This document shows, in pieces, positions 35,004 to 56,148 of a stretch of DNA of 64,000 bases. Each line of letters opens with the position of its first letter. Position 1 is the first letter of the stretch. Where the stretch lies: assembly GCA_903885595.1 (NCBI GenBank), contig CAISJJ010000068.1:10671-74670 (forward strand), written 5' to 3'. The position numbers and the translations under genes are program-made. The notes beneath the pieces were generated by a model. The model did not search any database. It saw only the letters and a program-made list of their open reading frames with translations, and was not told the origin of the DNA. The stretch comes from an uncultured Bacteroidales bacterium (GTDB lineage Bacteria > Bacteroidota > Bacteroidia > Bacteroidales > FEN-979).

Positions 35004-36299
35004 TTAATCCCAATCCAGACTTTCAAGGATGGCAATTAATTCGTGCGGACGGTATGGTTTAGAGATGTACTCGTCCATTCCTGCTGCCAGGCATTTTTCA
35101 CGATCGGTAACCATTACATGGGCGGTTACTGCAACAATCTTGATTCGTTTTGTTTCTTTTTCCAATGCCCTGATCACACGGGTTGCCTCAATCCCATCCA
35201 TAATAGGCATGGCGATATCCATCAGGATCAGATCGTACTGAGAATTTTTAAATTTTTCAACGGCTATTTTCCCATTCTCGGCAAGCTCAACATGATGTCC
35301 CGAACGTTCGAGACTGGTCATTGCAAATTTCTGATTTAATATGTTGTCTTCAACAAGTAGTATAGAAAGCGGCCTCAGTGCTTTTTTTTGAGAAATAACG
35401 CCTAGTCTTTGATTTGTAAGTAGTTCGTCATCTCCTTTGTCGACGACCAATGTGAACCAAAAGGTGGATCCATCTCCTTTTTTACTGCGAACCCCAATTT
35501 TACCATTCATCAAACGTGTGAGGTTTTTTGATATGGAGAGCCCCAAACCTGTCCCTTCAAACTGTTTGATCAGTGGATTTTCCAATTGGGCAAAATCATT
35601 AAACAGGCTTTGCTGTTCTTCGTCAGAGATCCCAATACCGGTATCGGTCACTTCAAATTTTAATAATACTTCACTATCAGGATTCAGTGAGGATGGACCG
35701 GTGATCCAGTCTGGAATAAATTCGACGTTTTGATCGAATCCGCCGTGTTTCAGATCGATGGTTTCAACCGCGACAACAACATGTCCTTCATTGGTGAATT
35801 TGATAGCATTGTTTGTGAGGTTGATGAGGATTTGCTTCACCCTGACGGGATCACCAATAACGCAGGTAGGCACGGTTGACTGGATTTTGGAAAAAAGATC
35901 AATGCCTTTTCCCTTGGCTTTTATTGATAAAAGCCTGATAACCTGGTGGATTTCGTCCTGGAGGAAGAATGGTTTCTGATCCAGTTTCAACTGACCGGCT
36001 TCAATCTTTGATAAATCGAGAATATCATTGATGATTGTAAGCAGGTTGACACTTGAAATGTTGATGATCTCCAGAAATTCCCGCTGCTCGCTGGTTAGCT
36101 CGGTTTGACTTAAAACATTATAAATCCCAATAATACTGTTCATGGGAGTTCTGATCTCATGGCTCATATTGGCCAGGAACATGGTTTTTGACCTGTTGGC
36201 ATTTTCAGCCTCCTGTTTTGCTTTTATAAGGGCACTGCGAACCTTTTCATGTTCCTCTTTTGTGACAAACCCTTCATTATTAGCCTTCAATTCGTCCAT
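35004..36299 (-). CDS. cytoplasmic hybrid sensor histidine kinase (HisKA-HATPase_c-REC) without a recognisable input domain or TM segment
   Basis: 431 aa. The H-box is [14 protein letters not shown], with an N box [10 protein letters not shown] and G boxes DTGIGI and GTGLGLSI. The receiver contains ILLVEDN...[10 protein letters not shown]...KPY. Confidence 0.85.
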
Positions 36300-36300
36300 T

Positions 36301-37713
36301 TTATAATTTATTCAATTGATTTTTAATGATTGAGTAAAGTTCCTGCTGATTGATAGGTTTGGAGATATAGTCATCGAATCCCGCTTCTAAAAGCTTTTCT
36401 TTATCCCCGGCCATTGCATAAGCTGTTTGTGCAACGAAAGGAATAGATTTGTACTCCTTCCATTTTTTTCTTATTTCCTGCATTAACCTGATTCCATCCC
36501 AGGGCGGAGGAAGATTAATATCAAAAAGCATGATGTCGAAAATTTTTCCCTCTTTGTATGTCTGCTCCATAATCCTCATTGTTTCATCACCATTGACCGA
36601 TGTGATCACATTGCCGAGTGATTTTGTCATTTCGTACAACACAATTTTATTCATCAGGTCATCTTCGATTATGAAGATCTCTAAACCTTGCAGCGTTTTG
36701 AATTTCTGCTTGCGCGTTGGTTCCTTGGTAATATGGTCGGTTTTGTTTGTTTTTTCAGGAGGGAAAAAGATGGTAACTGTAGTTCCGATCCCTTTGGCCG
36801 ATTCGATTTCGATGTGTCCCCTCATTAATTCAACGAGACTTTTTGCCAGGGGTAACCCCAGGCCTGCACCTTGTGCCTCGTTGGAATATCCAAGGGTTTC
36901 CTGTCTGAACGGATCAAAGATAACCGGCAGGTAGGAGGGGTCAATACCTGAACCTGTGTCTTTTACCCGTATACAGATTTCATCCTTGTCACCGATAAAC
37001 TCTGTCGAAACATTAATAAACCCGTTTTGCGTATATTTTATTGCATTTTCAACAATTGCGCTGATCACTTTTGTCAACCCTTTTTCATCAACACAAGCCT
37101 GGGGCAACTCGTTGGTCTTTAAATTCAATTTCAGTTTTTGCTCATTGGCTTTGAAGATATACAATTGGGTTGCATTGGCAACGATGGTGTTTAAATCGCA
37201 TGGCTTGAGCACAATCTGCATATCATTTGCTTCAAGTTTGCTGATATCGATGATATTGTTCAACAAATGCAGCAACCGGTCACCACTGTCGGAGATAGCT
37301 CTTGCATAATCATACAATTCCTTATTCTCAAGCAGTGATATTTCCGCTTCCAGTAAACTGGAAAAACCAATGATGTTATTTAACGGGGTACGAATCTCAT
37401 GGCTGATATTGGATAAAAATGCATTCTTCATGAAATTTGATTCCTCAGAACGCTTTAATGCACGTTTCAGAGTGAAATCAGTTTTTTCACCCTCTTCGTA
37501 TTCCTCTTTCATCGATTGAATTCTCTCCTGTATTTTTGTTTCAACCGAATCTTTAAGTTCTTCATTAAGGGCATTGGCTTTACCAAGTTCTGCGGTTTTA
37601 TCTGAAACTGATTCAGCAAGTTGTTTGTTCTTTTTTAGCAGCGTGTACACAAAAGCCAGACAAATGAGTAGCGCAAGAAATAAGAGAATGGGGATAAATA
37701 TTGTATTTTGCAT
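36301..37713 (-). CDS. membrane-anchored hybrid sensor histidine kinase (1 TM, coiled coil, HisKA-HATPase_c-REC)
   Basis: 470 aa. The N-terminal TM is [22 protein letters not shown]. The H-box is [14 protein letters not shown], with DTGSGI and GAGLGLPLA. The receiver contains IFIIEDD...[10 protein letters not shown]...SKPI. It is separated from the next kinase gene by 1 nt. Confidence 0.85.
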
Positions 37714-38539: not shown

Positions 38540-40261
38540 TTAGTTATTCAATATTATTAATTTCCTTGTAACTGCTGAGTAATCAGTTTGAAAAATCAAG
38601 GAATAAACCCCCGGTTTCAACGATTCCCTGTAAATGATGAATTGGTATTTACCTGGTGGTTGAAGCGCTGATCTCCTAAGCATAACCATACGTCCCTGGT
38701 CATCAAGCAGCCGTATGGTAATATCGGTTGAATGTATAAGCTGGTATGCGACATCGCATTGATCTGTGAATGGATTTGGAGAAATGACAAGTTTCAGATC
38801 GGTTAGGTTTCCATGTTCTGGCGTGTCAAGGAGCGAAGAATCGCTACACTCATAGGCTCCTATGTCGTATGAAACGGCAAATGGGCGTGGCCGGTTTATG
38901 TGGTCATAGGAAAGATCGAATCCTGCCACAGGTAAAGCATTATTAACGGCAGGGGAAGTAGATTTCAGGTCAAAAATTTTCAGACCCGGATCCAAAAAAC
39001 CGGGGTAATTGATATCACGGGTGGTGAGGTTTTTAAAAAGAGTCACATCAATTGTAGCCGGACTAAGGTTAATATAAGCTTGTTCCTGGAGTGTTTGATA
39101 GGATCCCGGATCAACGATTATATTATTTGCTATAACATTGCCTGTACTCTGATTATCCGTAAACCGAACACCATAGCTTTTCGGGGAGATGATTGTATTG
39201 AAAACGATCATACAGGAATTGCCAGGAGATGTATATTCAGGGCCGACATAGATCCCGTGTTTTAACCAGGGAGTATAATTCTGGGTTGGTTTATAGGCTT
39301 TTCCCGGGTTTATGATAAGGTTGTTATATATATATTGTTTTCCGAAGGAGATTACGTCGATCCCATCGCCCAGCCCGTCTGTGATTCTGTTGTTGAAAAC
39401 ACTGGCATTCGTGCCCCCGCCAATAAGTATCCCCGACATCTGATACGTGATTGCGAGTTTGCTGTCATTAAGAATCACATTGTCGTGTATGGTGCATGCT
39501 GAATCGGTGGAGCTGACCTGGATACCATCCCATCCTGCTTCCTGGACCAGGTTTCGGTAAACTTTCACCCCTTTCAGCAAATGAGGCAACACAGTAGTAT
39601 CCCTTCCTCCACAGGTAATTACCTGGCCGGCATACTTGGAACTTCCGATATACATACCTTCCATCCCGGTATGGTGGATGTAATTATCATGGATGCTGAG
39701 ATTCCGCAGTGTGTACTTATCCCTGGTTGAGGTGAAAGAACAATTTGGATCAGTTTTGGCAAAAATACCTGCAAGTCCGACATTGCCAATTTCCAGACCC
39801 TCAATCTCAATATCCGTACTCAACCCATCAACAGACAAACCGGCGCCAATAAACTGGTCAATTTTAATTCCATGCTGCAGCGCTGATATTCCAGTGCCTG
39901 ATAATTTTATATAGGAGCAGGAGTCGAATTTAACCCCGTAATTTGATCCGCCGGTAATGGTTACAAGGCCATCAGCGTTTTGGATGATTATAGGGTCAGT
40001 TTTCGTACCATGCATGTATGAAAGAAGTAAAAATGTTTTGATCCCCTTCTTTAAGCAAATGGTATCACCTCCCCTGACCATCGCAGCGTTACTATGGCCG
40101 TTGATCAGGGTTACCGAAGAGTCGACCAGGAGTTTACAGTGCTTGTACTGAGCCTGCCCGATAAATGTAAATGTCAGCATACAAAATGTAAGCAGAAAAA
40201 ACCACGATTTCCTGTAAGCTGCTAAACCTGACATCGTTGAATTATTATCCACGTTTTGCAC
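38540..40261 (-). CDS. right-handed parallel beta-helix repeat protein with a T9SS type-A C-terminal sorting domain (candidate secreted glycan-modifying or degrading enzyme)
   Basis: 573 aa with a signal peptide. Repeated G..I....N..I.NN/HDN turns are typical of PbH1 repeats. The C-terminus LVISPNPFTDQCDV...GVYSLIF is a type-A CTD. Confidence 0.65.
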   Translation of the reverse strand: MQNVDNNSTMSGLAAYRKSWFFLLTFCMLTFTFIGQAQYKHCKLLVDSSVTLINGHSNAAMVRGGDTICLKKGIKTFLLLSYMHGTKTDPIIIQNADGLVTITGGSNYGVKFDSCSYIKLSGTGISALQHGIKIDQFIGAGLSVDGLSTDIEIEGLEIGNVGLAGIFAKTDPNCSFTSTRDKYTLRNLSIHDNYIHHTGMEGMYIGSSKYAGQVITCGGRDTTVLPHLLKGVKVYRNLVQEAGWDGIQVSSTDSACTIHDNVILNDSKLAITYQMSGILIGGGTNASVFNNRITDGLGDGIDVISFGKQYIYNNLIINPGKAYKPTQNYTPWLKHGIYVGPEYTSPGNSCMIVFNTIISPKSYGVRFTDNQSTGNVIANNIIVDPGSYQTLQEQAYINLSPATIDVTLFKNLTTRDINYPGFLDPGLKIFDLKSTSPAVNNALPVAGFDLSYDHINRPRPFAVSYDIGAYECSDSSLLDTPEHGNLTDLKLVISPNPFTDQCDVAYQLIHSTDITIRLLDDQGRMVMLRRSALQPPGKYQFIIYRESLKPGVYSLIFQTDYSAVTRKLIILNN

Positions 40262-41444
40262 GTTCCCAATTAACCGATTGTTGTTTTTTTAAATATCTGA
40301 AAAAGCCCAGATACACAGCCAGATTCATGATAAAAAAATAGTACGGAACAAACAAAATCTTGATTTTTATCTTTTGTCCTTCCAGGTACCAGCCCAGCAA
40401 TGCCATTAAATAAAAGATAAATTGTCCGGCAAGCAGCCACATATAAATGCTTGAGAAATCGAAGCGCTCACCAATAAAAACAATCGCCAGGTTACAGCAC
40501 ATAATTATCAGTAAGCCAAGTGGCGCAAGGGTCCACCGCAAAACCCTGTGAGAAATATACTGAAATGAAAGAATTCCATATTTGAATGGGTTTAATAATT
40601 CCTTTAGTCGTACAATGGATTGAATTCCACCTGCTGATATCCTGATTTTTCGCTTTAGTTCTTCCCTCACATTGGCAGAAGGGTTTTCAATGGCAAATGC
40701 ATCCGGATCATATTGAATGGTATACCCTTGCATGGCAATTCTCAGGGAAATGATAAAATCATCGAGCAGGGTGTCTTTTTCAATCGGACGAAACAGGGAG
40801 GTTCTGAGTGCAAACAATTCCCCGGCAGCGCCAACAACTGAATGAAGACGGGCATCCCATTGTTTGAGTTTTGATTCATATTTCCAGTATATACCCTCTG
40901 TGGCCGCAGCAGTGTCTTTTGAAAACAGCCTTTTTTCTCCAGAAACACAACCGACATTTGGATTTTTAAAAAGGTTAACGATTCGGCGAATGGACTCTTT
41001 TCCAAGCATGGTATTTCCATCGGAAAAGATAACGATCGGGGTTTTTACGAATTGCATTCCGCGGTTCATTGCTGCAATCTTACCGGCACGTTCCGGCTGA
41101 TGATAAACCTCAACTCCTTCGTACTTTTGCAGTAATTCAGGGGTCCCGTCATCTGATCCGTCTGTAACCCAAACATGCCTTACTTTTTCCCTCGGATAAT
41201 CCAATGAAAAGGAGTTTTGAAGCTTCATGTCGATAAAATCCTTTTCATTAAATGCAGCAACAAACAATGTAACTTCTGGTTCATAAACTTCACCACCTTT
41301 ATCACCTTCCCTTTTTGCAAACATTTCTTTGATCCTGACGAGCAAAAAAAGCAAAATGCCATACCCGATATAGGCATAAAAAATCAGGAACAGAAAAATC
41401 CAAAAAATAATTTTCAATGTGATCATTGTTTCATCCTTTCCCAT
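40245..41444 (-). CDS. multi-TM family-2 glycosyltransferase of the PgaC/IcaA/NodC/cellulose-synthase-like type
   Basis: 399 aa. It has an N-terminal TM, a GT-A core (FVAAFNE, TDGSDDGT, FSDGNT, LLDDFIISLR) and three or more C-terminal TM helices. RKIRISAGG replaces the usual QxxRW. An alternative start at 41426 would give an ATGA overlap with the upstream gene. Confidence 0.8.
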   Translation of the reverse strand: MGKDETMITLKIIFWIFLFLIFYAYIGYGILLFLLVRIKEMFAKREGDKGGEVYEPEVTLFVAAFNEKDFIDMKLQNSFSLDYPREKVRHVWVTDGSDDGTPELLQKYEGVEVYHQPERAGKIAAMNRGMQFVKTPIVIFSDGNTMLGKESIRRIVNLFKNPNVGCVSGEKRLFSKDTAAATEGIYWKYESKLKQWDARLHSVVGAAGELFALRTSLFRPIEKDTLLDDFIISLRIAMQGYTIQYDPDAFAIENPSANVREELKRKIRISAGGIQSIVRLKELLNPFKYGILSFQYISHRVLRWTLAPLGLLIIMCCNLAIVFIGERFDFSSIYMWLLAGQFIFYLMALLGWYLEGQKIKIKILFVPYYFFIMNLAVYLGFFRYLKKQQSVNWERAKRG

Positions 41445-43252
41445 GTTTTTGTTTCACTACTATATTGTTTGAGCAACTTGGCCGGATTGCCTCCCACAAT
41501 GGAATAGGGGGGGACGTTTTTTGTGACAATGCTTCCGGCAGCTATCACCGCATGTTTGCCTATCGTTACACCGGCAACAACAACGGCATTGGCGCCGATC
41601 CACACCTGGTCTTCAACCACGATGTTGGAAAATGTACTTTTCTGTTTACTGGGGGGAGTGTTAATATCTTCATAACCATGATTTAATCCAGATAGCACAA
41701 TGTTTTGGGCAAACATAATATCGTTCCCTATGGTTACTGGTCCAATGATCACATTGCTCATTCCAATCCGGGTACGGTCGCCGATAATCACCGACCCAAC
41801 TCCGTTATTTATAGTCGAAAAGTCTTCAATGGTTGAATCATTTCCCAGTTTGAAATCATTCCAGGGGAACACATCAATTCGTGTCCGCCGACGGATTGTC
41901 GACCGCTTTCCCCGCTTATGTATGAACGGGTTGATGAAAAGTTTCACCCATGTCCTGGGGCGCGCCTGGTTATTGGGAATAAGCGACCATAGCATAAATT
42001 TCTTGATCCTGGGGTTCGATTTGAACCTGGACAGCCATGATGTTGACTTTTGAATTTTGGGTGGAGGTTGATCATTTTTAACGAGTGCTATCGCTTTATA
42101 AATCTCGTTTACATTGGCTTCCCAGGTATGACTGCGGGCAAATTCTTCACGGGCTTTGGCTAAATCAGGGGTGTTCTCTTTCAGTGCACGTTCGACCAGG
42201 GATAAATACTCTTCTTTTGAGCTGGCGAGGTAGGTGAAGGTTTCGAACACCTTCATTGCTTCTGTCCTCGTTGCGACTACTGGTTTTCCCATCGAAAGGT
42301 ATTCATCAATTTTTCGGGGATAATTTCCGATCGTTACTTCATTAAGTATTTGCGGATTGATCGCAACATCGAAGGTTGCCAGGTACATAGGCAACTCGGC
42401 AGGATTTTTACTGCCAAGAAAATGGACATTATTCAACCGGTGAAGTTCACTTGCTTTAAATGCCTCATCTTCAGGTCCAACGAGAACGATTGACCAATCA
42501 GGACGTTGTTTTGCAAGGTGGGTTATTATTTCCATGTCGAGCCGCAGGGTGAACAAGGCGCCAATATAGCCAATAATTGGATGATTTATCTTCTGAATAT
42601 CATCAGGGACAGTCTTGATCAGTTGCAAATCAAATGCACTTACATCACAACCCTGGCCAACATAATAGGCGTGGGGGTTGAATTTTTTCAGATAACCGGC
42701 CAGGTAGACTGAGTTTGCAACTGCAAGATCCGATTTCCGAATGAGGGCTGCTTCAATGCGGATTCCCTGTGTTTTCCACCAATCGACGGCAATCATGTTA
42801 TCGCGCGAATAATAGATATACAATGATGGCTTCAAATATTCTTTCAGGTAAAAACTTCTGAACATATCACTATCATTGAATAGCACAAAGTCTTTGAAGC
42901 CGAGTTTGTTTACCGCCCATGAAATCTGTTTTGCAAACCGTTTATTGTTTATTTTATTCAGGAAATCAAAAATGGCATCATATGGAACCTGGCTGATTGA
43001 TTCCAACATGGTACGGGGATAAAAACTCCATAAATTATCCTGGATTTTAATAAGGTTTTCAAGTTCACCCCTGAGCATTTTTTTCCGTTTTCCGATCTTC
43101 GGGTTATGGCGCTCCCGGTAAGCCGTCAGCCTGTCGAGTGGGTAGTTTACATAAAGTACCCGATGCTGTTTCGCAAATTCAATCGCAAGATTGATGCAAT
43201 TACTTCCAATATCGCTATCAAAAGCCTGTAAACCGGTTATAACAATATCCAT
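41423..43252 (-). CDS. bifunctional fusion: GT-B glycosyltransferase (TuaH-like, aa 1 to about 395) plus hexapeptide-repeat acyltransferase (aa about 410-609)
   Basis: 609 aa. The N-terminal part aligns end to end with the 28954..30171 product (MDIVITGLQ...SHTWEANV). The C-terminal part aligns with the 33363..33974 product (NQARPR...FINPFIH..GK...IGD...VWIGANAVV..GV.IGKH.V..AGS.VTK.VPPYS...GNPA.LL.QY). Confidence 0.8.
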   Translation of the reverse strand: MDIVITGLQAFDSDIGSNCINLAIEFAKQHRVLYVNYPLDRLTAYRERHNPKIGKRKKMLRGELENLIKIQDNLWSFYPRTMLESISQVPYDAIFDFLNKINNKRFAKQISWAVNKLGFKDFVLFNDSDMFRSFYLKEYLKPSLYIYYSRDNMIAVDWWKTQGIRIEAALIRKSDLAVANSVYLAGYLKKFNPHAYYVGQGCDVSAFDLQLIKTVPDDIQKINHPIIGYIGALFTLRLDMEIITHLAKQRPDWSIVLVGPEDEAFKASELHRLNNVHFLGSKNPAELPMYLATFDVAINPQILNEVTIGNYPRKIDEYLSMGKPVVATRTEAMKVFETFTYLASSKEEYLSLVERALKENTPDLAKAREEFARSHTWEANVNEIYKAIALVKNDQPPPKIQKSTSWLSRFKSNPRIKKFMLWSLIPNNQARPRTWVKLFINPFIHKRGKRSTIRRRTRIDVFPWNDFKLGNDSTIEDFSTINNGVGSVIIGDRTRIGMSNVIIGPVTIGNDIMFAQNIVLSGLNHGYEDINTPPSKQKSTFSNIVVEDQVWIGANAVVVAGVTIGKHAVIAAGSIVTKNVPPYSIVGGNPAKLLKQYSSETKTWERMKQ

Positions 43253-43274
43253 ATGTCTTCCTTTTCGGTTTATC

Positions 43275-44411
43275 TCATTTTACTGCAAGTTCCATGTAAA
43301 GGTTGAGTACTTGTTCGGCCATCGCTTTCCATGAAAACTTTCGTGCATTATCAAATCCCTTAAGGATAAGGGATTCGCATAGCGATGGGTCAGATAATAG
43401 TTTCTTCATGGCCCCGGTAATCTCTTCGGGGTTAAAAGGATTGATGAATAATGCGGCATTTCCACCAACTTCGGGCATTGAACTGGTATTGGAGGTTATG
43501 ACTGGTATACCGCAAGCCATGGCCTCCAGCATAGGAATTCCAAAACTTTCGCGAAGGGAAGGATAAAGAAAAATCGTGCTGAGTGCATATAAAGCAGGCA
43601 ACTCAGTATTGGGCACATATCCGGTAAGATGAATGTACTCATGAAGTGTGGGATCACCTATATCATTGATGATCCTGGTTAACTCAGTCCTGTCAAAATC
43701 AAGCATGACCAGGGGAATTTTTTCTTCTGATGAATTGAGAAAAAGTGAAAGCGCTTTCAGAACGCCCGGTGTGTTCTTTTTCGGATCGGTATTCCCGAAG
43801 AAAAAGAAGAATTTGTCAGGTAGCCTATATTTGGCCTTGATCAGGTTTAAATAGTCCTTATCTGAGACCGGCTTGAAATGGTCACTGACACCATTATAGA
43901 TAGCTTTGAGTTTATGGTCGTTCACATGAAAAAATTCACCGATCCGTTTTTTTTCAAATTCAGATACGGTGATGATCCTGGCACTGCTGCGCACAACTTG
44001 CGGTACAACGAAACGCCGGTAAAGGTTCCCGAATTTCTGATAGGAAGTGAATCCCTTTTTCAGAATACTCAGACTTTCCATGTAAATGATATCATGCAAG
44101 GTGATGATAAGTGGCACTGATGTAACGACAGGCGCGGTATTGCTCGTACAATGCAGGATATCGCAGTGAGCTTTTTTCGCTGCAGCAGGCAGGTTGACCT
44201 GCTCCCAAATTGGATAGGGGGCCGGGGCTACCTCAACGATTTTAAAATTTGCCCTTTCGTCAAGGCAGTGGTCGACATCATTTTTTACAAAAATGAAATA
44301 CTCATTTTTGCTGTCTATATCCTGGAGATTCCTGATCAACTCCAGGGCTACCATATCCATTCCGTGCTTTTTCTGCCGGAACAGGCGCTGCCCTTCAATC
44401 CCAATCTTCAT
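43275..44411 (-). CDS. family-4 (GT-B, RfaG-like) glycosyltransferase
   Basis: 378 aa. The C-terminal segment YPSLRESFGIPMLEAMACGIPVITSNTSSMPEV is the EX7E region. Confidence 0.85.
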   Translation of the reverse strand: MKIGIEGQRLFRQKKHGMDMVALELIRNLQDIDSKNEYFIFVKNDVDHCLDERANFKIVEVAPAPYPIWEQVNLPAAAKKAHCDILHCTSNTAPVVTSVPLIITLHDIIYMESLSILKKGFTSYQKFGNLYRRFVVPQVVRSSARIITVSEFEKKRIGEFFHVNDHKLKAIYNGVSDHFKPVSDKDYLNLIKAKYRLPDKFFFFFGNTDPKKNTPGVLKALSLFLNSSEEKIPLVMLDFDRTELTRIINDIGDPTLHEYIHLTGYVPNTELPALYALSTIFLYPSLRESFGIPMLEAMACGIPVITSNTSSMPEVGGNAALFINPFNPEEITGAMKKLLSDPSLCESLILKGFDNARKFSWKAMAEQVLNLYMELAVK

Positions 44412-45598
44412 TTTTCATCATTTTTATAACTGTGTTCCGTATGGATGAATTCTTTATTACTTCCCCGTATTTTAAAAATGATCATAACCATCAGAAAGAA
44501 CACTTTTGGAAGGGAAATCAATGCCATAAGTGTTTTTTTGCTCCAGAATTTTTGGGGAACTGAAATTACCAGGGTGGTTAAGATCATGATTAACAAACCC
44601 AACCAGCAATATTGAAAGCGTGGATTTGGAATGAACAGGTTCAATAAATTCACAAGAACGAGTATGCCCAACAGCATCACACGGGGAGGAAGGGAGAATT
44701 GCAGGGTCTTATCAAAATAGTCAAAATTACGATGGGCGATTAAGTGCCAGACAGACACGATAAAATCTCTGCCGAAAAAGTAAAACTGTGCATAAATCCA
44801 GCGTTTGCGTTGTTTGTAAAACACGCTTGCATTCTGAACTTTCTCGTCCAGGACATAAGCATCCTGAAGATATTCAATTTTAACCTTTTCGCGTAAGATC
44901 AACAATTCAAGTTCTTTGTCAAAACCACCTATGGCGCTTAACTGCGGGATGTATCGCCTGAACAGCTGGGCGTCGAAAACCATGGCGGAGCCGATCAATG
45001 CAGATGAAATGCCGAAAAGACGATGTCCTGCCCTGAAAATGTTATTATTGATCTCTTCACTGATCGCATCCAGCAGGGCAAAGGATGTATTGGTGTTTTT
45101 GGCAATACGATGGCATTGAATGACTTTATAACGAGACTCGCTTGCCATGTTGATTTTGTCGAGAAAATGATCTTCCATAATATTATCTGCATCGAGCACC
45201 AGTATCAGGTCGGTATCAGCACGGAGATGATTCAATGCAATCTGCAGCGATTTAGCTTTTGTACTGTATTCAAAATGTGCTTCAACAAGGGTAATGGGTA
45301 AAATTCTGAGCAATTCAAGTGTTTCGGTTTTAAATGAGTCGGCTATCAGAATTATGCTGAAGGAAGAAGTGGGATAATCCTGGTTCAGCGCCGATTTGAT
45401 CACTTCAATAATCACCGGATCTTCCATAAAAGCCGGAATGACTATACTGATATGTCTTTTTTTAGATACCGGATATTTTTTGTCTTTCCCTCTCAGGAGA
45501 CCTGCAACTGCGAAGACCAGTAAATAAAGAGATGCCCCACCTAAATAGGCCAGAACAATGAGCTGCAGGATATGTAGGATTGATCTGATATGTTCCAT
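44408..45598 (-). CDS. multi-TM family-2 glycosyltransferase, processive-synthase-like (QRKRW motif)
   Basis: 396 aa. It has an N-terminal TM and a GT-A core (IVIPAFMED, LDADNIM, FDKELEL), then KQRKRW followed by four predicted TM helices. It is a paralogue of the next gene. Confidence 0.8.
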   Translation of the reverse strand: MEHIRSILHILQLIVLAYLGGASLYLLVFAVAGLLRGKDKKYPVSKKRHISIVIPAFMEDPVIIEVIKSALNQDYPTSSFSIILIADSFKTETLELLRILPITLVEAHFEYSTKAKSLQIALNHLRADTDLILVLDADNIMEDHFLDKINMASESRYKVIQCHRIAKNTNTSFALLDAISEEINNNIFRAGHRLFGISSALIGSAMVFDAQLFRRYIPQLSAIGGFDKELELLILREKVKIEYLQDAYVLDEKVQNASVFYKQRKRWIYAQFYFFGRDFIVSVWHLIAHRNFDYFDKTLQFSLPPRVMLLGILVLVNLLNLFIPNPRFQYCWLGLLIMILTTLVISVPQKFWSKKTLMALISLPKVFFLMVMIIFKIRGSNKEFIHTEHSYKNDEK

Positions 45599-45607
45599 AC
45601 GTATCTG

Positions 45608-46810
45608 TTATTTAGGTGTACTGATATCTTTTTGTACAGTATGTGTCGTATGACCAAAACCCCGTTTGGCTTTGAAGATCCGGAAGAGTGAACCAAGCAT
45701 GAAGATGAACCCTTGAGGAAGGACAAGTACCGCTTTTAAGGTCTCGATGTTAAAGTAGGGACCTGGGATTGAGATTAGCAGCATGAAGGTACACAAAGCC
45801 GTAAGTGCAATCCAGCCAATGGCTATTGGCAATGGGTTAAATAAAAACGAGAGAAGTGAGATAATGACAAGGAAACCCATCAGGAAGATCCTGGGAGGCA
45901 AAAACTGTTGAAATACTTTGTCGAAATAATCAACATTTCCTCTGACAAATAACTCTTTTAAACTTGAAATAAAGTATTGTCGTGCATAAATGAATTGGTT
46001 TGCCAACCACCTGGTTCGCTGAACCATAAATACCTGTGATTTTTGAACTTTTTCGTCGTAAACATATGCATTTTCACAATACTCGATACGTTTCCTGTCT
46101 CTTAAAAGTTTAATTTCCAATTCTTTGTCTTCTCCAAATGAGTCAATGGTTGACATATAATCTTTAAACATTTTATAATCGAAAGCCATGCCGCTGCCGA
46201 TCAGGGCTGATGATAGCCCGATTACGCGATGACCTTTGCGAAAAATGTGGTTGTTGATCTCTTCACTTACTGAATCAAGCACAGCGAAGGATGTATTTCT
46301 GTTTTTGGCTTTGCGGTGTCCCTGAATAGCAACAAATCCACTGGAAAGTGCAGCATTCATTTTTGTTATAAAGTCCTGTGCCATTATATTATCGGCATCA
46401 AGAATGATAACGGCATCATAAATGTCGGGCAGGATGCTCATGGTTTTATTTAATGCCCTTGATTTGGAGCTTTTTTCAAATGACACTTCAATCACCTTGA
46501 CAGGTAACTTGCGAAGTTCGTCAATGGTCGTTTGCTGAAATGAATCGGCAATGATGATCACATCAAATTGGGAAGGTGGATAGTCCTGGTGCAGAGCCTG
46601 TTTTGCAACTTCGATAATCACGGCATCTTCCTTGTATCCCGGGATCAGGACTGCGAACTTGCGGGTCACTTTATCCTTAACAGGTTTCAGAGTATATCGG
46701 AAAAGCCCTGAAATAGAGAAAATGGAAAAATAAAGTGCGGCAATAAAGAAATAAAAAAACACGATTGCTTCAAGAGCCAGGAGTGCAAAACAGAGGTAAT
46801 CTTTTGCCAT
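45608..46810 (-). CDS. multi-TM family-2 glycosyltransferase, processive-synthase-like (QRTRW motif)
   Basis: 400 aa with the same architecture as 44408..45598 (VLIPGYKED, LDADNIM, GEDKELE, VQRTRW, C-terminal TM bundle). Confidence 0.8.
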   Translation of the reverse strand: MAKDYLCFALLALEAIVFFYFFIAALYFSIFSISGLFRYTLKPVKDKVTRKFAVLIPGYKEDAVIIEVAKQALHQDYPPSQFDVIIIADSFQQTTIDELRKLPVKVIEVSFEKSSKSRALNKTMSILPDIYDAVIILDADNIMAQDFITKMNAALSSGFVAIQGHRKAKNRNTSFAVLDSVSEEINNHIFRKGHRVIGLSSALIGSGMAFDYKMFKDYMSTIDSFGEDKELEIKLLRDRKRIEYCENAYVYDEKVQKSQVFMVQRTRWLANQFIYARQYFISSLKELFVRGNVDYFDKVFQQFLPPRIFLMGFLVIISLLSFLFNPLPIAIGWIALTALCTFMLLISIPGPYFNIETLKAVLVLPQGFIFMLGSLFRIFKAKRGFGHTTHTVQKDISTPK

Positions 46811-46890
46811 AAGATGGTTGTTTATGAAAAAATCAGATGAGCTGCTGAAGCAAAGTTAAATATAAATCAAACCGAATACAATATCACCAT

Positions 46891-47814
46891 TTATAAATAA
46901 GGATTGTCATGTATTTCAGAACTGATTGATCTTTTCAGATGCCAACCGATAGCCCTGACATATGCATAAAACAATGAAAATTTGCCCTTAATCAGAAATT
47001 TCAGTGCATTCCTTGGAATTGCAACCATTAGCTGATACAGTATTCCTATTAAAAAATCAATCCCAAAAACATTTCTCCGCATAAATACGATGCGGTTGCG
47101 GTTCAGATAATATATTTTCATGGGGCTTAATTTCCCCACCGAGATTGACTCTTTATGATAAACCAGCGAATTATGGACATAGAATATTTTATAACCGGCC
47201 CTTTTGATTCGGTAACTCCAATCGGCTTCTTCATAATAAAGAAAAAAAATGTACGACATCAGCCCAACCTCTTTAATAACCCGCATGGGCACCATCATAG
47301 AAGCGCCATGTGCATAGGGGGTTTCATGATCGCGGTCATGCTGTCCCTTATCTTTTTCTTTATGACCAATGGCGAAATTACGCATGGTCCGGTGGTTGAT
47401 CGGGGTATAGCCAGCGTATTGTATTAAATTACGATCGTAATAGTAACGGAGTTTTGAACTGACAGCGCCAATGGTTTTATCCCTCTCCAATTTATCTACC
47501 AGCGGTTCAAGAAATCCCTTATCAACAATAGTATCATTATTCAACAGCAGCACATATTCACCCCGGGCACGCATGATACCCTGGTTATTGCCACCTGCAA
47601 ATCCATAATTGATGATACTCTCGTAAAGGATTATCGAAGGGAAACGCTGTTTAATAATCTTGGGGTTATCAGAAGGAGAGGCATTGTCGATGATGATGAT
47701 TTCAATATTTGGATAGGATATTTTAGTCAGTGATTCAATAAACTCGCACGTATCCTCTGACCCGTTGTAATTAACCGAAACAATAGAAACAAGCGGATAG
47801 TTTTTTTGTGCCAT
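46891..47814 (-). CDS. family-2 glycosyltransferase (soluble type, WcaA/rhamnosyltransferase-like)
   Basis: 307 aa. Contains VSIVSVNYNG, LLNNDT and YYEEADW. It is a paralogue of the next gene. Confidence 0.85.
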   Translation of the reverse strand: MAQKNYPLVSIVSVNYNGSEDTCEFIESLTKISYPNIEIIIIDNASPSDNPKIIKQRFPSIILYESIINYGFAGGNNQGIMRARGEYVLLLNNDTIVDKGFLEPLVDKLERDKTIGAVSSKLRYYYDRNLIQYAGYTPINHRTMRNFAIGHKEKDKGQHDRDHETPYAHGASMMVPMRVIKEVGLMSYIFFLYYEEADWSYRIKRAGYKIFYVHNSLVYHKESISVGKLSPMKIYYLNRNRIVFMRRNVFGIDFLIGILYQLMVAIPRNALKFLIKGKFSLFYAYVRAIGWHLKRSISSEIHDNPYL

Positions 47815-47847
47815 GTTTACAGGTTCTATGTGTTTCAGTATTCATTT

Positions 47848-48795
47848 TCAGTTAAGACGCGGACTTTGATAAAGTTCAGGGTTATGTAAATTCTTTATGT
47901 GCCAGATGATAGCCCTGGCATAGGCGATAAAAAGTCTGAATTTGCCTTTTAGCAGAAAAACAGCCAGGTTTTTGGGAATGGCAATAAATACCTGATAAAA
48001 CAGTGACGCGATAGCTATCATTCCATGAACATTCCGACGCATATAGAGCAATCGGTTCCTGTTTAGGTAGAAGATTTTCAATGGACTCATTGTTCCTGTT
48101 GTGATAGAGTCCTTATGAAATACCAGGGAGCTGTGAACGTAAAAGATTTTATATTTTGCATCCTTGATCCGCTGCATCCAGTCCATCTCTTCATAATAAA
48201 GGAAAAAAATGTCGGCCATTAAGCCAACCTCCTTCATGACTTTCATTGGTATAACCATAGCAGCTCCGAATGCATAATTTGTCTGCGCATCTGAATCATA
48301 CTGTCCATGGTCGATTTCATTAAAACCAATCCCGTTGTTACGGATTGTGATCGGATTTATGGGGGTGAACCCTGCGTACTGAATGGTATCGGGAGTGAAA
48401 AAATATCTGATTTTCGGGCTTACAACACCAATTTCAGGATTGTTTTCCAATTTAGCAATCAAAGGCTCAAGGAACCCGGAATCAACTTCCGTATCATTGT
48501 TTATCAACAAGGCGTATTTTCCTTTTGCGACCCGGATCCCCAGGTTGTTTCCTCCGGCAAATCCAAGGTTCAGATCACTTTTAATTAAAGTGATATAAGG
48601 GTACTTTTCAAGGATTATGTCAGGATTTTTTGAAGGGGAGGCGTTATCTACAACGATAATTTCGATTGACGGATAGGTTATGTGCGTAAGTGATTCAAGA
48701 AGATCGCAGGTTATTTCCGGCTGATTGTAATTGACCGTAATTATAGAAACCAAAGGAAAATTTAAAAGTGGTTTCTCAATCATAATTTCTGACAA
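47848..48795 (-). CDS. family-2 glycosyltransferase (soluble type), tandem paralogue
   Basis: 315 aa. Contains VSIITVNYNQ, LINNDT and YYEEMDW. It is collinear with the 46891..47814 product. Confidence 0.85.
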   Translation of the reverse strand: MSEIMIEKPLLNFPLVSIITVNYNQPEITCDLLESLTHITYPSIEIIVVDNASPSKNPDIILEKYPYITLIKSDLNLGFAGGNNLGIRVAKGKYALLINNDTEVDSGFLEPLIAKLENNPEIGVVSPKIRYFFTPDTIQYAGFTPINPITIRNNGIGFNEIDHGQYDSDAQTNYAFGAAMVIPMKVMKEVGLMADIFFLYYEEMDWMQRIKDAKYKIFYVHSSLVFHKDSITTGTMSPLKIFYLNRNRLLYMRRNVHGMIAIASLFYQVFIAIPKNLAVFLLKGKFRLFIAYARAIIWHIKNLHNPELYQSPRLN

Positions 48796-48838
48796 TTAAT
48801 TGTGTAAATATTTATAGTTAACGTCTTAAGAAAAGTGA

Positions 48839-48979
48839 CTATTTTTCCATCATGTGACGGAGATGTTCCTCCTCCTTGGCTTTTTCTATTTTTTTTCTGT
48901 ATTGATACATTGCGGTTATATATCCGATTGGGGCGGCAATGAGCAGGCCAATGACCATATGTACAACAACACCTTCCAT
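48839..48979 (-). CDS. possible 46-aa small membrane protein (below the ORF-track threshold)
   Basis: My own translation is MEGVVVHMVIGLLIAAPIGYITAMYQYRKKIEKAKEEEHLRHMMEK. It has one hydrophobic helix and a charged tail. The ATG lies 3 nt after the upstream Wzy-like stop and fills an otherwise unexplained 187-nt gap in a tightly packed operon. Confidence 0.3.
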   Translation of the reverse strand: MEGVVVHMVIGLLIAAPIGYITAMYQYRKKIEKAKEEEHLRHMMEK

Positions 48980-48982
48980 TTT

Positions 48983-50470
48983 TTAAACTGATAATTGAGG
49001 TTGATTTTCCAAGGAACTTTCTGCCAGTTGCTCGTCAAGGTCAGGCGCAATAAATACGTATGCCATACTTGCATATATCAGCAATCCCGTAGGAAACTGT
49101 CCAAGAACTGCATTCCCGTAACTCGCTATAATAATACCGAATATACCAGCCAAAAGGGCTCCTGTTTTAACAAATAAATCCTGGTTTTTAATCTCGAACA
49201 TACAGATAAAGGTTCCCTTGCCAATGATAAACCCGATGATGAACAGGTGAATATACAATCCGACAATTCCGGTTTCGGCCCATATCAGCACAAACCAGCT
49301 GTCGGTAGCAACATTTGCCAGGAAAGCGTCAGGTGTATATTGCAATGCCCTGTTTCCTGCGTGCCCGATACCTCCTCCGAAGGGCCTGGTCTTCAGATAT
49401 TGTTCAAAAAGCCGCTGATTTGCCAGACGAACCTGGTAAGAGGCATCTTCTTCAGGAACGAAGGCGGTTCGCATACGGTAAATCTGGTAGTTGGAATTGC
49501 CTATATAGGTAAAACGGAAGAATGAATAAAAAAGCAAAAAGAGGATGCTTCCAATAAAAATAACCTTAATGTTTTTCCGGAGAATCATGTATAGGAATAA
49601 TCCGGCCATAGGAACAAAAATGGCGCCGCGTGTACCCGAGCTTGACATTCCGTAGTACCCGGCGATCATGACCACAATCCAAAAAAAACGCTTTTTTGTA
49701 TCTTTTTCGTTAAACATCAGTATCGTTGCGATCAAACCGATTTGTGCCTGGGCAGCTCCAAACTGGCCTGCATCGGTATAGAAAGAAAATGCACGCAGAT
49801 TCCCGAGCAGGATATGGGTGACAGCACCACCTCCTTCATAAAGCCAGCGTTCTTCCCACGCATCGGGTCCTATGTTTATTTGTATCCATGCTTTAACGGA
49901 AGCAAGAATCGAGAAAATTCCCCAAATTATCAGAAATTTATCAAGGTGGCGGGGCGAGTTATACAGCATGAATACCAGCGGGATGGTCAGAAGCATGTAT
50001 AACCCGATCCCGCGAAATGAAGCAAACCATGCAGCTTTACTGATGGCTTCCGGATTAAACAACTCCATGCAAATGTAAATAAACCAGATGGCTGCCAGGA
50101 TGACAAGATCAAGTTTTAAGGACTTTATTGGCCATCTTCTGTCAAAATAATGAAAGAAAATAGAAATATAAATTACTACAAGGGTGATATCCATTACATA
50201 ACCAAGTTTAATGGGCAGATAACGCGTAAGTCCCATTAAAATGAAATTAATAATGAAGGCAAAGGTGAGCCCAAGTTCAGGCTTTGCAATTAACCGGTTC
50301 AGGGCATAAGCAAGAAATGGTAAAACCATCAATACAGATGCTACCGTAAATCCACCTCTGGCAATTACAAAACCGATCCCGACTGACATAACGAGTACTG
50401 AGCCAATCAGAAATGGATCTTTCAGACGGTCGGAGCCTGTTCTGTAATAAAATGGATTAATCTGATTCAC
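48983..50470 (-). CDS. O-antigen ligase/polymerase (Wzy-like) family membrane protein
   Basis: 495 aa with about 11-12 predicted TM helices and a large loop. The composition is typical of the Wzy_C family. The start codon is GTG. Confidence 0.7.
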   Translation of the reverse strand: MNQINPFYYRTGSDRLKDPFLIGSVLVMSVGIGFVIARGGFTVASVLMVLPFLAYALNRLIAKPELGLTFAFIINFILMGLTRYLPIKLGYVMDITLVVIYISIFFHYFDRRWPIKSLKLDLVILAAIWFIYICMELFNPEAISKAAWFASFRGIGLYMLLTIPLVFMLYNSPRHLDKFLIIWGIFSILASVKAWIQINIGPDAWEERWLYEGGGAVTHILLGNLRAFSFYTDAGQFGAAQAQIGLIATILMFNEKDTKKRFFWIVVMIAGYYGMSSSGTRGAIFVPMAGLFLYMILRKNIKVIFIGSILFLLFYSFFRFTYIGNSNYQIYRMRTAFVPEEDASYQVRLANQRLFEQYLKTRPFGGGIGHAGNRALQYTPDAFLANVATDSWFVLIWAETGIVGLYIHLFIIGFIIGKGTFICMFEIKNQDLFVKTGALLAGIFGIIIASYGNAVLGQFPTGLLIYASMAYVFIAPDLDEQLAESSLENQPQLSV

Positions 50471-50491
50471 AATTAAAATTACAAAAAATAA

Positions 50492-51298
50492 TCATTTGAA
50501 TGAATTAATTTTTTTAACTGCCATATTCATGTTATCGACCAGCACAAATTCAAACTCGTTCCGTGGATTAAAATAGGTTTTGATCTCATCCAGCCCACTC
50601 AGTTTCCACTCGATGATGAACAGCAGATCAGGATGCCCGCTTATGAAATTCATCGCTCCAGCAAGCACTTCCGGTTCCATACCCTCTGTGTCGATTTTGA
50701 TCATGATCTTGTCAGTTTTGTTTAATTTCAGCTGGTCTGTTACTGAATCAAACGTTCTGATTTCAACTTTTTCTATTTTTTTCAGTCCCACGATGGAATG
50801 ATCGTAATGCGTTGAAGCGGCCAAGTGGGAAGCTCCGGTGTTTATTGTTTCGAAAATGAAGTCCTCTTCACTGTTACTTGATCCAAGTCCAAAATTAAAC
50901 GGTGTGATTTTATGTCCGAGGTCATTTAACAGGATATTGATTTTTAAAGCAGAATAATTTTCTTTCGCTGGTTCAAATGCAAAGCATTGCAAACCCATTT
51001 TTGCCATGAGGACACTATAGGTGCCAATGTTTGCGCCAATGTCGATAAATACGTTGTACTCCTTGTAATGTTTGAAGAAAAACTGTTTTACATTCCATTC
51101 GTAGGCATAATTAGCAAACTGAAAGTCCAGAGTTCCCTTGCGTGAAAAAAAAAGTCCGATGCTGCTTTTGTATAGCCGGTTTCTACTGGTGGTCCTTTTG
51201 AATATGATGTATTTAATGGAGGTCAGGAGAAACAGGTATTCGCCATGCTTCATGTAATCAATTAAATAGCGATAAAAAGTTACCAGTTTTACAATCAT
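50492..51298 (-). CDS. FkbM-family methyltransferase
   Basis: 268 aa. Contains FIDIGANIGTYSV and CFAFEP. The C-terminal IKIDTEG.E..VL.G is the FkbM family signature. Confidence 0.8.
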   Translation of the reverse strand: MIVKLVTFYRYLIDYMKHGEYLFLLTSIKYIIFKRTTSRNRLYKSSIGLFFSRKGTLDFQFANYAYEWNVKQFFFKHYKEYNVFIDIGANIGTYSVLMAKMGLQCFAFEPAKENYSALKINILLNDLGHKITPFNFGLGSSNSEEDFIFETINTGASHLAASTHYDHSIVGLKKIEKVEIRTFDSVTDQLKLNKTDKIMIKIDTEGMEPEVLAGAMNFISGHPDLLFIIEWKLSGLDEIKTYFNPRNEFEFVLVDNMNMAVKKINSFK

Positions 51299-52677: not shown

Positions 52678-52678
52678 C

Positions 52679-55339: not shown

Positions 55340-56148
55340 TAATCAATTTTATTTATTACGTTAAATTTTATGCCGGCAAACTCCTGCAGGAGCATGTAGG
55401 CATTATAGAAATTAAACCGCGATTCTTCATAGTCGGTAACTGCCTTACGATACATTTCATTGATGTAAGCCAATTCATATAGCGTGATCTGACCGTTGAG
55501 AAATTCTTTATCACCCATCTCTTTTTGAAGCGCCTGGGCATAAATATTTTCATTGGCAATTTTAAGAATACGTTGATTAACGATAAGCTGGTTATATTGA
55601 ACGATAATTAATTTCCGTAATTCAATTATTTGGTTGTCTTTGATTGCCATTGATTTTTCGACCTCTTTTGTTGCGGTTTTTATCCTGTTTTTACGATCCC
55701 AGAAGTCATCCATCGGCAAACGCACACTTACGCTGACAAGCGCCCGGTTATTGTCCTGGTACGATTGAAAGGTATTGCTGATTATCACCGGATTGGATAC
55801 ATCAAAATTCTGTGTATATGAATCCCAATAGTCTGTTTGTAACAATCCATCAATAAATAAATTCTGCATCCATTCCCTTTTGGCAGTTTTGATTTTATAT
55901 TTCCAGATAGCAATGTCTGCATCCTGCGACCGCAGTAAAGGAGAATTTACGATAGCGCTGTCAATAAGGTCTTCCAGCGGAGGAATGCGTAAGGTTATGT
56001 CATCCACAAACGGGTTGAATGTCGCGGCTGAATCCTGGTTGTTGCTGGAACCCTGAAAGAATCCTTGTCCAAAGAATAAAAGTGGAGAACAAAATAGAAT
56101 TAGGACCAATAAAAATGTATGTCTTGTTTTCATATCCACTTGTTGCAT
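55339..56148 (-). CDS. secreted half-size TolC/OEP-like protein (single outer-membrane-efflux-protein repeat)
   Basis: 269 aa with a signal peptide. The pattern LEDLIDSAIVNSPLLRSQDADIAIWKYKIKTAKREW....L, then RLPM.D...R...I..A..E.......... and ...F..G.IT..EL........A...Y......F....LLQEFAGI, follows one OEP repeat. That is about half the length of canonical TolC-family proteins. Confidence 0.5.
   Translation of the reverse strand: MQQVDMKTRHTFLLVLILFCSPLLFFGQGFFQGSSNNQDSAATFNPFVDDITLRIPPLEDLIDSAIVNSPLLRSQDADIAIWKYKIKTAKREWMQNLFIDGLLQTDYWDSYTQNFDVSNPVIISNTFQSYQDNNRALVSVSVRLPMDDFWDRKNRIKTATKEVEKSMAIKDNQIIELRKLIIVQYNQLIVNQRILKIANENIYAQALQKEMGDKEFLNGQITLYELAYINEMYRKAVTDYEESRFNFYNAYMLLQEFAGIKFNVINKID

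Follow-up and report, generated by a model that had tools for sequence, protein, structure and literature searches.

An asymmetric pair of hybrid histidine kinases in a Wzx/Wzy-type exopolysaccharide operon of Bacteroidales and its possible link to a receiver-fused phosphoglycosyl transferase

We analyzed a 64,000-nucleotide (nt) stretch of DNA from an uncultured Bacteroidales bacterium (assembly GCA_903885595.1, contig CAISJJ010000068.1), referred to below as the window, with a focus on two adjacent genes that encode hybrid histidine kinases, HK1 and HK2. The window is a Bacteroidota chromosome segment with a GC content of about 0.41, in which sorting domains of the type IX secretion system (T9SS), PorP/SprF, uvrB and mutL are present. 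The list of open reading frames (ORFs) and the Pfam gene order place both kinase genes in a long and tightly packed minus-strand operon that runs from about 57798 down to 33363. We compared 25 loci from Prolixibacteraceae, Draconibacterium and unclassified Bacteroidales metagenome-assembled genomes (MAGs), including a set centered on the kinases (L001-L019), and found that in Prolixibacteraceae-like Bacteroidales the pair normally terminates a conserved exopolysaccharide operon of the Wzx/Wzy type, about 23 kb long. Within this pair, HK2 is under full catalytic constraint, whereas HK1 is constrained everywhere but at its own phospho-accepting histidine. The operon features on which the analysis rests are the following (aa, amino acids).

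57400..57798, minus strand: RR132, single-domain response regulator, 132 aa, operon gene 1 (Pfam Response_reg 1.9e-28)
56161..57393, minus strand: REC-PGT, receiver-fused small monotopic phosphoglycosyl transferase (PGT), 410 aa (Pfam Bac_transf 1.9e-59, Response_reg 1e-9)
40245..56148, minus strand: Wzx/Wzy-type polysaccharide assembly genes, from the operon head to the 3' cassette (Pfam; order kept in L001-L019)
38540-40261, minus strand: beta-helix protein with a T9SS C-terminal sorting domain (CTD) (Pfam)
37722-38528, minus strand: MT268, S-adenosylmethionine (SAM) methyltransferase, 268 aa (Pfam)
36301..37713, minus strand: HK1, membrane-anchored hybrid histidine kinase, 470 aa (Pfam, AlphaFold2, hydropathy, residue mapping)
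35004..36299, minus strand: HK2, soluble hybrid histidine kinase, 431 aa (Pfam, AlphaFold2, hydropathy)

Both proteins are predicted HisKA-type hybrid kinases, each with a DHp domain carrying the H box, with N, G1, F and G2 boxes and with a receiver. Pfam matched HK1 to HisKA (aa 95-162, 4.7e-18), HATPase_c (aa 209-320, 1e-26) and Response_reg (aa 346-463, 1.9e-16), and HK2 to HisKA (aa 38-102, 3.6e-20), HATPase_c (aa 149-285, 6.9e-23) and Response_reg (aa 313-425, 1.8e-27). Residue mapping found H105, E106, T109, N223, D252/G254/G256, F269 and G282/G284/G286 intact in HK1, together with D351, D352, D398, T430 and K452 of its receiver; the corresponding set is also intact in HK2 (H47, N164, D219/G221/G223, F236 and G249/G251/G253, with D318, D361, T392 and K414 in the receiver). 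The H-box motif SHEIRTP is common to both kinases, at H105 in HK1 and at H47 in HK2. These results bear out a preliminary description of the window, which had read the two genes as HisKA-HATPase_c-REC hybrids with intact H, N and G boxes and an acceptor aspartate, lying 1 nt apart. The junction between them is TAA-A-ATG, and the genes are a translationally coupled pair. The domains are laid out as follows.

37630-37710, minus strand: HK1 transmembrane (TM) helix, aa 2-28 (hydropathy, with a hydrophobic stretch at aa 1-28, and AlphaFold2)
37438-37629, minus strand: HK1 coiled coil, aa 29-92
37228-37437, minus strand: HK1 DHp, aa 93-162, with H105 at 37399-37401 and the ExxT motif formed by E106/T109
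36754-37089, minus strand: HK1 CA, aa 209-320
36325-36678, minus strand: HK1 receiver, aa 346-463, with D398 at 36520-36522
HK2 N-terminal coiled-coil extension, aa 1-37
35994-36188, minus strand: HK2 DHp, aa 38-102, with H47 at 36159-36161
35445-35855, minus strand: HK2 CA, aa 149-285, with a variable insertion at about aa 180-215
35025-35363, minus strand: HK2 receiver, aa 313-425, with D361 at 35217-35219

The input side of both kinases is sparse, as had been described beforehand: HK1 begins with one TM helix and a coiled coil, HK2 has a short N-terminus before its DHp domain, and neither protein shows a PAS, GAF, periplasmic or other sensor domain. Hydropathy showed no hydrophobic segment in HK2. 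PAS, GAF, HAMP and Hpt gave no match in either kinase in Pfam (E<=0.1) or NCBIfam. We also built single-chain AlphaFold2 models from 66-sequence alignments (mean pLDDT 79 for HK1 and 83 for HK2). In the HK1 model, one continuous helix spans aa 2-128, joining the TM segment, the coiled coil and DHp helix 1 without a break, with no HAMP-like helix-loop-helix and no space for a PAS domain; this unbroken helix therefore excludes a HAMP or PAS module. In HK2, a helix at aa 14-63 leads directly into the DHp domain. The Pfam and NCBIfam scans and the plain helices upstream of both DHp domains together ruled out a cryptic PAS, HAMP, GAF or Hpt domain. In intramembrane-sensing kinases of the BceS/LiaS kind, a very short extracellular loop connects a pair of TM helices, further input domains are absent, and there is a functional link to an ABC transporter or another membrane partner. 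HK1 does not belong to this kind: it has one TM helix, its TM sequence is poorly kept (identity 0.30), and the operon holds no ABC transporter.

HK1 and HK2 share 32% identity and the same architecture. Their receivers are 37% identical to each other, and RR132 is 29-32% identical to the kinase receivers; we dropped receiver similarity as a means of assigning phosphotransfer partners because identities in this range (29-37%) do not discriminate. In HK2, about 30 extra residues are inserted into the CA domain between the N and G1 boxes (aa 180-215; 35655-35762), and this insertion is poorly conserved, with an identity of 0.33 among orthologues.

Conservation was assessed in 113 HK1 and 109 HK2 homologue representatives, the HK2 set spanning 54-100% identity. 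In HK2, all 16 of the catalytic and receiver positions that we compared are unchanged across its representatives, except for an F/Y exchange at the F box. At the phospho-histidine position of HK1, 58 representatives have H, 48 have S, 4 have Q and 3 have A, so that the histidine is lost in 55 of 113; a neighbor-joining tree with Fitch parsimony gave at least six changes at this site. Elsewhere HK1 is preserved, His-less forms included. E106 and T109 (the phosphatase motif, H+1 and H+4) are invariant, and so are N223 of the N box, D252, G254 and G256 of the G1 box and G286 of the G2 box, most of which is kept; in the receiver, D351, D352, D398, T430 and K452 do not vary. In loci L004, L010, L014 and L019, a His-less HK1 adjoins a His-bearing HK2. 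HK1 of the window retains H105 and is thus not a histidine pseudokinase of the DivL/PsmA kind in this genome; the absence of the histidine that marks this kind is seen in 55 of the 113 homologue representatives. The phospho-histidine of HK1 is dispensable in about half of its homologues, and by this comparison the two proteins are not equivalent kinases.

Regional identities, computed over 18 orthologues from L001-L019, showed that the DHp domains (0.85 in HK1, 0.88 in HK2) and the receivers (0.84 and 0.77) are the most conserved regions of both kinases and that the N-termini are the least conserved (0.30 in HK1, where it comprises the TM helix, and 0.41 in HK2). The coiled coil of HK1 scored 0.41 and has no counterpart value in HK2, whose N-terminal extension varies in length among orthologues. 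HK1 is membrane-anchored and HK2 soluble in 17 of 18 orthologues, that is, in all those with a recovered N-terminus. The preliminary description had suggested that the TM-anchored kinase might sense a machinery component or a lipid-linked intermediate. Sensing by the TM helix finds no support here: the TM helix and the coiled coil are the least conserved parts of HK1, and the periplasmic TPR domain of close relatives is missing from HK1.

These data also bear on whether HK1 and HK2 might be redundant paralogous kinases with no division of labor, receiving their input through the C-terminal receivers from unlinked kinases. The intact motifs of both kinases in this genome, their common architecture and their level of identity would fit such an arrangement, but the two are old paralogues that are paired in every locus examined, and the constraint on their phospho-histidines is very different. 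One is membrane-anchored and the other soluble in every orthologue with a recovered N-terminus. Because constraint and localization both differ between HK1 and HK2, simple redundancy is unlikely, and we regard this explanation as the most improbable of those considered.

The family of HK1 is large, with members of about 470 aa, and the neighborhood of HK1 is well kept among relatives. The order GT2 glycosyltransferase, beta-helix protein with CTD, MT268, HK1, HK2 recurs in 17 of the 19 kinase-centered loci, at identities to the window proteins down to about 55%; the remaining two start late but keep HK1-HK2 (L015 begins at MT268 and L018 within HK1). The spacer between HK1 and HK2 is 2-21 nt in L001, L003 and L004, the three relatives for which genes had been called. 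HK2 is the final gene of the operon in 20 related loci; in the kinase-centered set, a convergent gene cluster follows. The position of the pair had been described as mid-operon, which is true of this strain and does not hold for the relatives: the pair is mid-operon here only because two strain-specific genes, an accessory insertion, follow HK2. Neither the 313-aa methyltransferase nor the 203-aa acyltransferase encoded by these genes lies downstream of HK2 in L001-L019 or in L022, a further locus described below.

At the operon head, the relation to the kinases could be followed along contigs. In ctg45429l, 22 kb separate HK1 (417.6 kb) from RR132 and REC-PGT (about 394.9-396.5 kb) in the same record, and in contig_17, 27 kb separate HK1 (122.2 kb) from REC-PGT (95.05 kb), again within one record. 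The longest contig had the same length in at least 14 pairs of HK1 and REC-PGT homologue clusters and in about 17 pairs of HK2 and REC-PGT clusters. The kinase pair is genetically linked to the polysaccharide locus. Together, RR132, REC-PGT with glutamate at position 77 of its receiver-like domain, the beta-helix-CTD protein, MT268, HK1 and HK2 form a conserved, co-inherited set. We found no relevant literature on this operon in Prolixibacteraceae or Draconibacterium. One of the loci, L011 (SACF01000050.1), is labeled 'MAG: Alphaproteobacteria bacterium' and carries a Bacteroidales-type locus; the label is probably a binning or taxonomy error, because its gene coordinates are identical, and its identities near-identical, to those of L009, a Bacteroidales MAG.

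The cassette also occurs in another setting. In L022 (GCA_030622635.1, JAUXFX010000004.1), positions 4522-13637 encode a beta-helix-CTD protein, a methyltransferase, two HK1-like kinases with TPR domains and one HK2-like kinase, at the syntenic chromosomal position (FKBP, DHH, NDK, HTH_3, S8 peptidase). The TPR-HK1-like proteins have 875 aa (His replaced by Gln) and 796 aa (His kept), and the HK2-like protein has 410 aa. This locus suggests that the four-gene 3' cassette forms an independent unit and that a periplasmic TPR sensor was lost from HK1. It also raises the alternative that the kinases serve the T9SS beta-helix protein and MT268, regulating or responding to extracellular glycan modification or degradation or T9SS cargo, and have no part in PGT initiation. 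The cassette is intact in 17 of the loci L001-L019, a convergent T9SS cluster (CHU_C, PorP/SprF, CTD protein) adjoins the kinase pair in most loci, and L022 holds the cassette at the same position, with periplasmic TPR domains on its HK1-like proteins. We nevertheless consider this alternative improbable, since it offers neither a receiver nor an output, while the pair is co-inherited with RR132 and no other intact stand-alone receiver is present; L022, moreover, is one 42-kb contig and represents only part of its genome.

The Pfam scan covered all large ORFs of the window except the end-truncated ORF 309-776 and three genes at 61076-63933, and no scanned ORF matched Hpt. Unannotated gaps are at most 383 nt long and their ORFs at most 48 aa, so a small Hpt gene hidden in an intergenic gap was ruled out. 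No DNA-binding output of the response-regulator type is present in the window; the sole protein with a helix-turn-helix (HTH) motif is an Xre-type protein of 134 aa (19333-19737), which lies 15 kb away and is not a response regulator. RR132 is the only stand-alone receiver in the window and has no output domain. Here the preliminary description had been accurate on each count: no Hpt, no HTH output regulator, and, as the only receivers besides those of the kinases, an intact single-domain regulator and a PGT-fused pseudo-receiver. In about 15 related contexts with available Pfam lists, Hpt families were likewise missing. Within the 64-kb window, therefore, neither the Hpt nor the terminal response regulator with an output domain that a multistep His-Asp-His-Asp phosphorelay comprises was found, and since the locus has no Hpt, a self-contained relay of this type is impossible. 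A branched one-step scheme, in which the C-terminal receivers are sinks or regulatory modules, fits better than a phosphorelay.

A conventional relay could still run through partners elsewhere, from the hybrid receivers to an unlinked Hpt and on to a DNA-binding response regulator that controls this operon or others, with RR132 as a side branch or sink. Orphan hybrid kinases with unlinked partners are common, and only 64 kb of the genome is visible. The top NCBIfam matches of HK1 and HK2 are the hybrid kinases TorS, BarA, ArcB, LuxQ and RcsC, all of which use an Hpt; these matches cover the cores only and fall well under the family cut-offs. Against such a relay stand the lack of Hpt both in the window and in the related contexts, an intact, very conserved and output-less RR132 that is co-inherited with the pair beside a receiver-fused PGT, and the repeated loss of the HK1 histidine, which is hard to square with an ordinary relay kinase. 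We judge a conventional relay to be possible and, on balance, rather unlikely. If an unlinked Hpt and regulator do exist, the locus would be an ordinary pair of orphan hybrid kinases.

The receiver residues of RR132 are intact (D9, D10, D53, S83, K105). RR132 lies directly upstream of REC-PGT in 6 of 6 contexts seen (five distinct assemblies), including those with PGTs only 55-56% identical, and it is highly conserved; its helix 1 is invariant even where the PGT is only 55% identical. Helix 1 of response regulators is the surface that docks on kinase DHp domains. The best matches of RR132 are receivers of the PhoB/OmpR type, which dimerize through the alpha4-beta5-alpha5 face. RR132 is the probable phospho-acceptor of the kinase pair. 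Its neighbor REC-PGT contains the following parts.

aa ~9-140: receiver-like domain, with Glu77 (57163-57165) at the acceptor position
aa ~168-202: re-entrant hydrophobic segment (hydropathy)
aa 171-405: Bac_transf catalytic domain (Pfam)

Glu77 aligns with the acceptor aspartates of the three true receivers, D53 of RR132, D398 of HK1 and D361 of HK2, and among 12 family members nine have E at the acceptor position, two have D and one has N. The receiver-like domain is thus a pseudo-receiver in which the acceptor aspartate has been replaced, and because position 77 is Glu, it cannot accept phosphate. In several receivers, exchange of the acceptor Asp for Glu is partially activating. The architecture of REC-PGT is that of a small monotopic PGT (monoPGT), with one re-entrant segment and the catalytic domain following the receiver-like domain and no four-helix TM bundle; by likeness to other small monoPGTs, the enzyme is presumably monomeric. 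About 55 aa are inserted into its Bac_transf domain, with four cysteines (C253, C256, C265 and C277; aa 253-277) that are invariant in 12 of 12 aligned members, and the inserted segment could represent a Zn-ribbon or a redox-sensitive element.

Downstream of the operon head and ahead of the 3' cassette (40245..56148), Pfam identified in order an OEP-like outer-membrane protein, a Wzz/GNVR protein with LysM (886 aa), a Wzx flippase, an FkbM methyltransferase, a Wzy_C polymerase or ligase (Wzy-like) and seven glycosyltransferases, the latter comprising five GT2 enzymes, one GT4 enzyme and a fusion of GT1 with a hexapeptide acyltransferase. The 886-aa Wzz/GNVR protein (52679-55339) has its LysM at aa 176-217; its last ~250 aa hold only a Walker-A-like 'STRDSEGKTS', lack a C-terminal Tyr cluster and gave no kinase match in Pfam, and may be a degenerate bacterial tyrosine (BY) kinase domain. 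The GT1-hexapeptide acyltransferase fusion is a 609-aa protein (41423-43252) whose halves are separate genes in L001, L003 and L016. In MT268, an N-terminal CPYC...CPRC four-cysteine motif, Zn-ribbon-like, precedes the SAM-binding domain.

Downstream of HK2, a strain-specific accessory block (28954-34970) separates the pair from the convergent T9SS cluster. This block does not occupy this position in the 17 loci of L001-L019 that reach past HK2; in L014, the genes for the MaoC-SDR and 578-aa proteins occur elsewhere in the operon. The features of this region are listed here.

34029-34970, minus strand: methyltransferase, 313 aa, strain-specific, 3' of HK2 (Pfam)
33363-33974, minus strand: hexapeptide acyltransferase, 203 aa, strain-specific, last gene of the operon (Pfam)
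33189-33214: terminator-like hairpin beyond the last gene of the operon (consensus scan)
31345-33081, plus strand: 578-aa protein without a Pfam match, in the accessory block
30158-31348, plus strand: MaoC-dehydratase/SDR fusion, in the accessory block
28954-30171, plus strand: GT1 glycosyltransferase, in the accessory block

The 203-aa acyltransferase (33363-33974) looks like a paralogue of the C-terminal half of the 609-aa fusion, because the N-terminal motif 'NQARPR...FINPFIH' is common to both sequences. Around the kinase pair, a consensus scan showed no excess of internal promoters or terminators: it gave 22 promoter-like sites, against 20.5 in shuffled sequence (the sigma-70 consensus being a poor model for Bacteroidota), and 7 terminator-like sites, against 7.4 in shuffled sequence; the hairpin at 33189-33214 is the only notable one.

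Taken together, these results lead us to propose, tentatively and as a reading we hold to be plausible rather than probable, that the asymmetric kinase pair sets the phosphorylation of RR132 and that RR132~P gates REC-PGT post-translationally, not via DNA. HK2, soluble and catalytically invariant, would be the ATP-dependent phosphodonor. At least in the His-less lineages, phosphorylation of the HK1 receiver must come from a different kinase, and no candidate other than HK2 is co-inherited. HK1, tethered to the inner membrane by one helix, would have a modulatory role, and in this genome it may be both kinase and phosphatase. It may act in one or a combination of three ways: as a phosphatase that uses the conserved E-x-x-T motif to act on RR132~P, on the receivers or on both, an activity suggested by the retention of this motif and of the nucleotide site; through its own receiver, which would take phosphoryl groups from HK2; or through heterodimerization of its DHp domain with HK2. 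The loss of the TPR domain that its sister kinases carry suggests that HK1 may be a constitutive or partner-controlled anchor. The pair would thereby set the phosphorylation level of RR132, and RR132~P would act on REC-PGT post-translationally, with a receiver-receiver contact on the Glu77 pseudo-receiver as the likely interface. The gated step would be the first committed, undecaprenyl-phosphate-consuming step of the pathway. The C-terminal kinase receivers would act as intramolecular sinks or in autoinhibition, and no His-Asp-His-Asp relay would be required. To the anatomy, synteny, co-occurrence and residue conservation observed here, this scheme adds a direction of phosphorylation and a contact between RR132 and the PGT, both of which we infer.

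There is precedent for control of this kind. In exopolysaccharide (EPS) initiation in Myxococcus xanthus, EpsW~P binds and activates the PGT EpsZ post-translationally, and receiver domains are fused to some small monoPGTs (PMC12802240). The preliminary description had put forward a self-contained, non-transcriptional phosphorelay acting on the assembly machinery. Its non-transcriptional part finds support in the linkage to a polysaccharide locus, in the lack of a nearby Hpt or DNA-binding output and in the EpsW~P/EpsZ precedent; its phosphorelay does not, as there is no true phosphorelay without an Hpt.

Several points weigh against gating of REC-PGT by way of RR132. The phosphotransfer partners we propose are candidates by gene linkage. 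An Hpt, the usual route for hybrid kinases, or a DNA-binding response regulator could be encoded outside the 64-kb window, and HK1 of the window, which keeps H105, may here be simply a second kinase. The cassette of L022 has no adjacent glycosyltransferase or PGT genes on its single 42-kb contig, and for this reason the kinases may be tied to the beta-helix and methyltransferase genes and not to the PGT. The size-matched contig pairs are a lower bound on co-occurrence and do not cover the distant REC-PGT operons L020 and L021, which are represented with 10-kb flanks and have their 3' ends outside. Finally, small monoPGTs are reported to act as monomers (PMC12802240), so that the dimerization-promoting mechanism of EpsW is not transferable unchanged.

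In a more specific version of the proposed gating of REC-PGT, which we regard as doubtful, HK2 and HK1 would form an obligate complex, with HK1 as a receiver-bearing pseudokinase/phosphatase that reads or resets the state of the system, and RR132 would dock on the phosphomimetic pseudo-receiver and switch on glycan initiation. If true, this docking would be a glycan-initiation switch not yet described for monomeric PGTs.

How the undecaprenyl-phosphate-consuming first step is throttled is largely unexplained for Wzx/Wzy systems, for which EpsW~P/EpsZ, in late 2025, is the first mechanistic case. The locus described here offers a compact, genetically self-contained version in another phylum, with kinase, modulator, regulator and docking-domain target in one operon, and the series of His-less HK1 proteins is a natural experiment on a hybrid 'kinase' unable to autophosphorylate. 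If our proposal is true, control of a PGT by a response regulator would extend to small monomeric PGTs, and a Bacteroidota example would be added to multikinase networks and histidine pseudokinases. All of the parts are of known kinds; what is new is their combination, the operon-internal wiring and the repeated loss of the histidine in one partner. The locus is an attractive and testable system, in which each functional step is so far a prediction from sequence.

Close relatives of HK1 include Bacteroidota sensor kinases with TPR-TM-HisKA-HATPase-REC architecture (for example P0090, P0092 and P0104), which share 55-58% identity with HK1 from the coiled coil to the C-terminus and whose kind occupies the place of HK1 in the L022 cassette. 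In these proteins a signal peptide and about 300 aa of periplasmic TPR precede the TM helix, whereas HK1 starts at that helix. The nearest solved relatives of HK2 in a PDB search include 6qrj (a 484-aa 'Hybrid kinase', 1.9e-57), which we take to be ShkA, and RetS. ShkA of Caulobacter is a soluble DHp-CA-receiver kinase that has no N-terminal sensor and is controlled in its C-terminal receiver region; it has an extra pseudo-receiver that binds c-di-GMP and signals via the Hpt protein ShpA to TacA. HK2, unlike ShkA, has a single canonical receiver, and we identified no c-di-GMP site in it. A similar kinase-kinase logic to that proposed here is found in EspA/EspC of Myxococcus, where one hybrid kinase phosphorylates both receivers.

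The modulation of HK2 by HK1 that we propose resembles RetS/GacS of Pseudomonas aeruginosa, in which one hybrid kinase modulates another, in part by interference at the level of the DHp domains, in the control of polysaccharide and biofilm (PMC5992135, PMC8498467). RetS attenuates GacS by taking phosphoryl groups from it, by the phosphatase activity of its transmitter and by inhibiting autophosphorylation (PMC5992135). However, those kinases have periplasmic sensors and are encoded by non-adjacent genes, and GacS signals through its Hpt to the DNA-binding GacA; here these elements are lacking and the genes are coupled. The DivL-CckA-DivK circuit of Caulobacter likewise unites a membrane-anchored (pseudo)kinase, a hybrid kinase and a single-domain response regulator in one set, and the pseudokinase DivL reads the phosphorylation state of the single-domain regulator (PMC4211667, PMC9430884). 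DivL differs from HK1 in having Tyr in place of His, PAS domains and no receiver, whereas HK1 of the window keeps its histidine and only its homologues are His-less; CckA, in turn, signals via the Hpt protein ChpT to CtrA. Hybrid histidine pseudokinases have themselves been described, for example PsmA (PMC12963549).

The closest parallel on the output side is EpsW-EpsZ. In both cases an intact single-domain response regulator with no DNA-binding output is linked to a Wzx/Wzy EPS system, here at the level of genes, with the contact predicted. The systems differ at both ends of the pathway. The kinase in Myxococcus is the CheA-like DifE of a chemosensory system, in place of which our locus has two operon-encoded hybrid HisKA kinases, and EpsZ is a large dimeric monoPGT without the beta-hairpin, in place of which our locus has a small monoPGT with a Glu-substituted pseudo-receiver.

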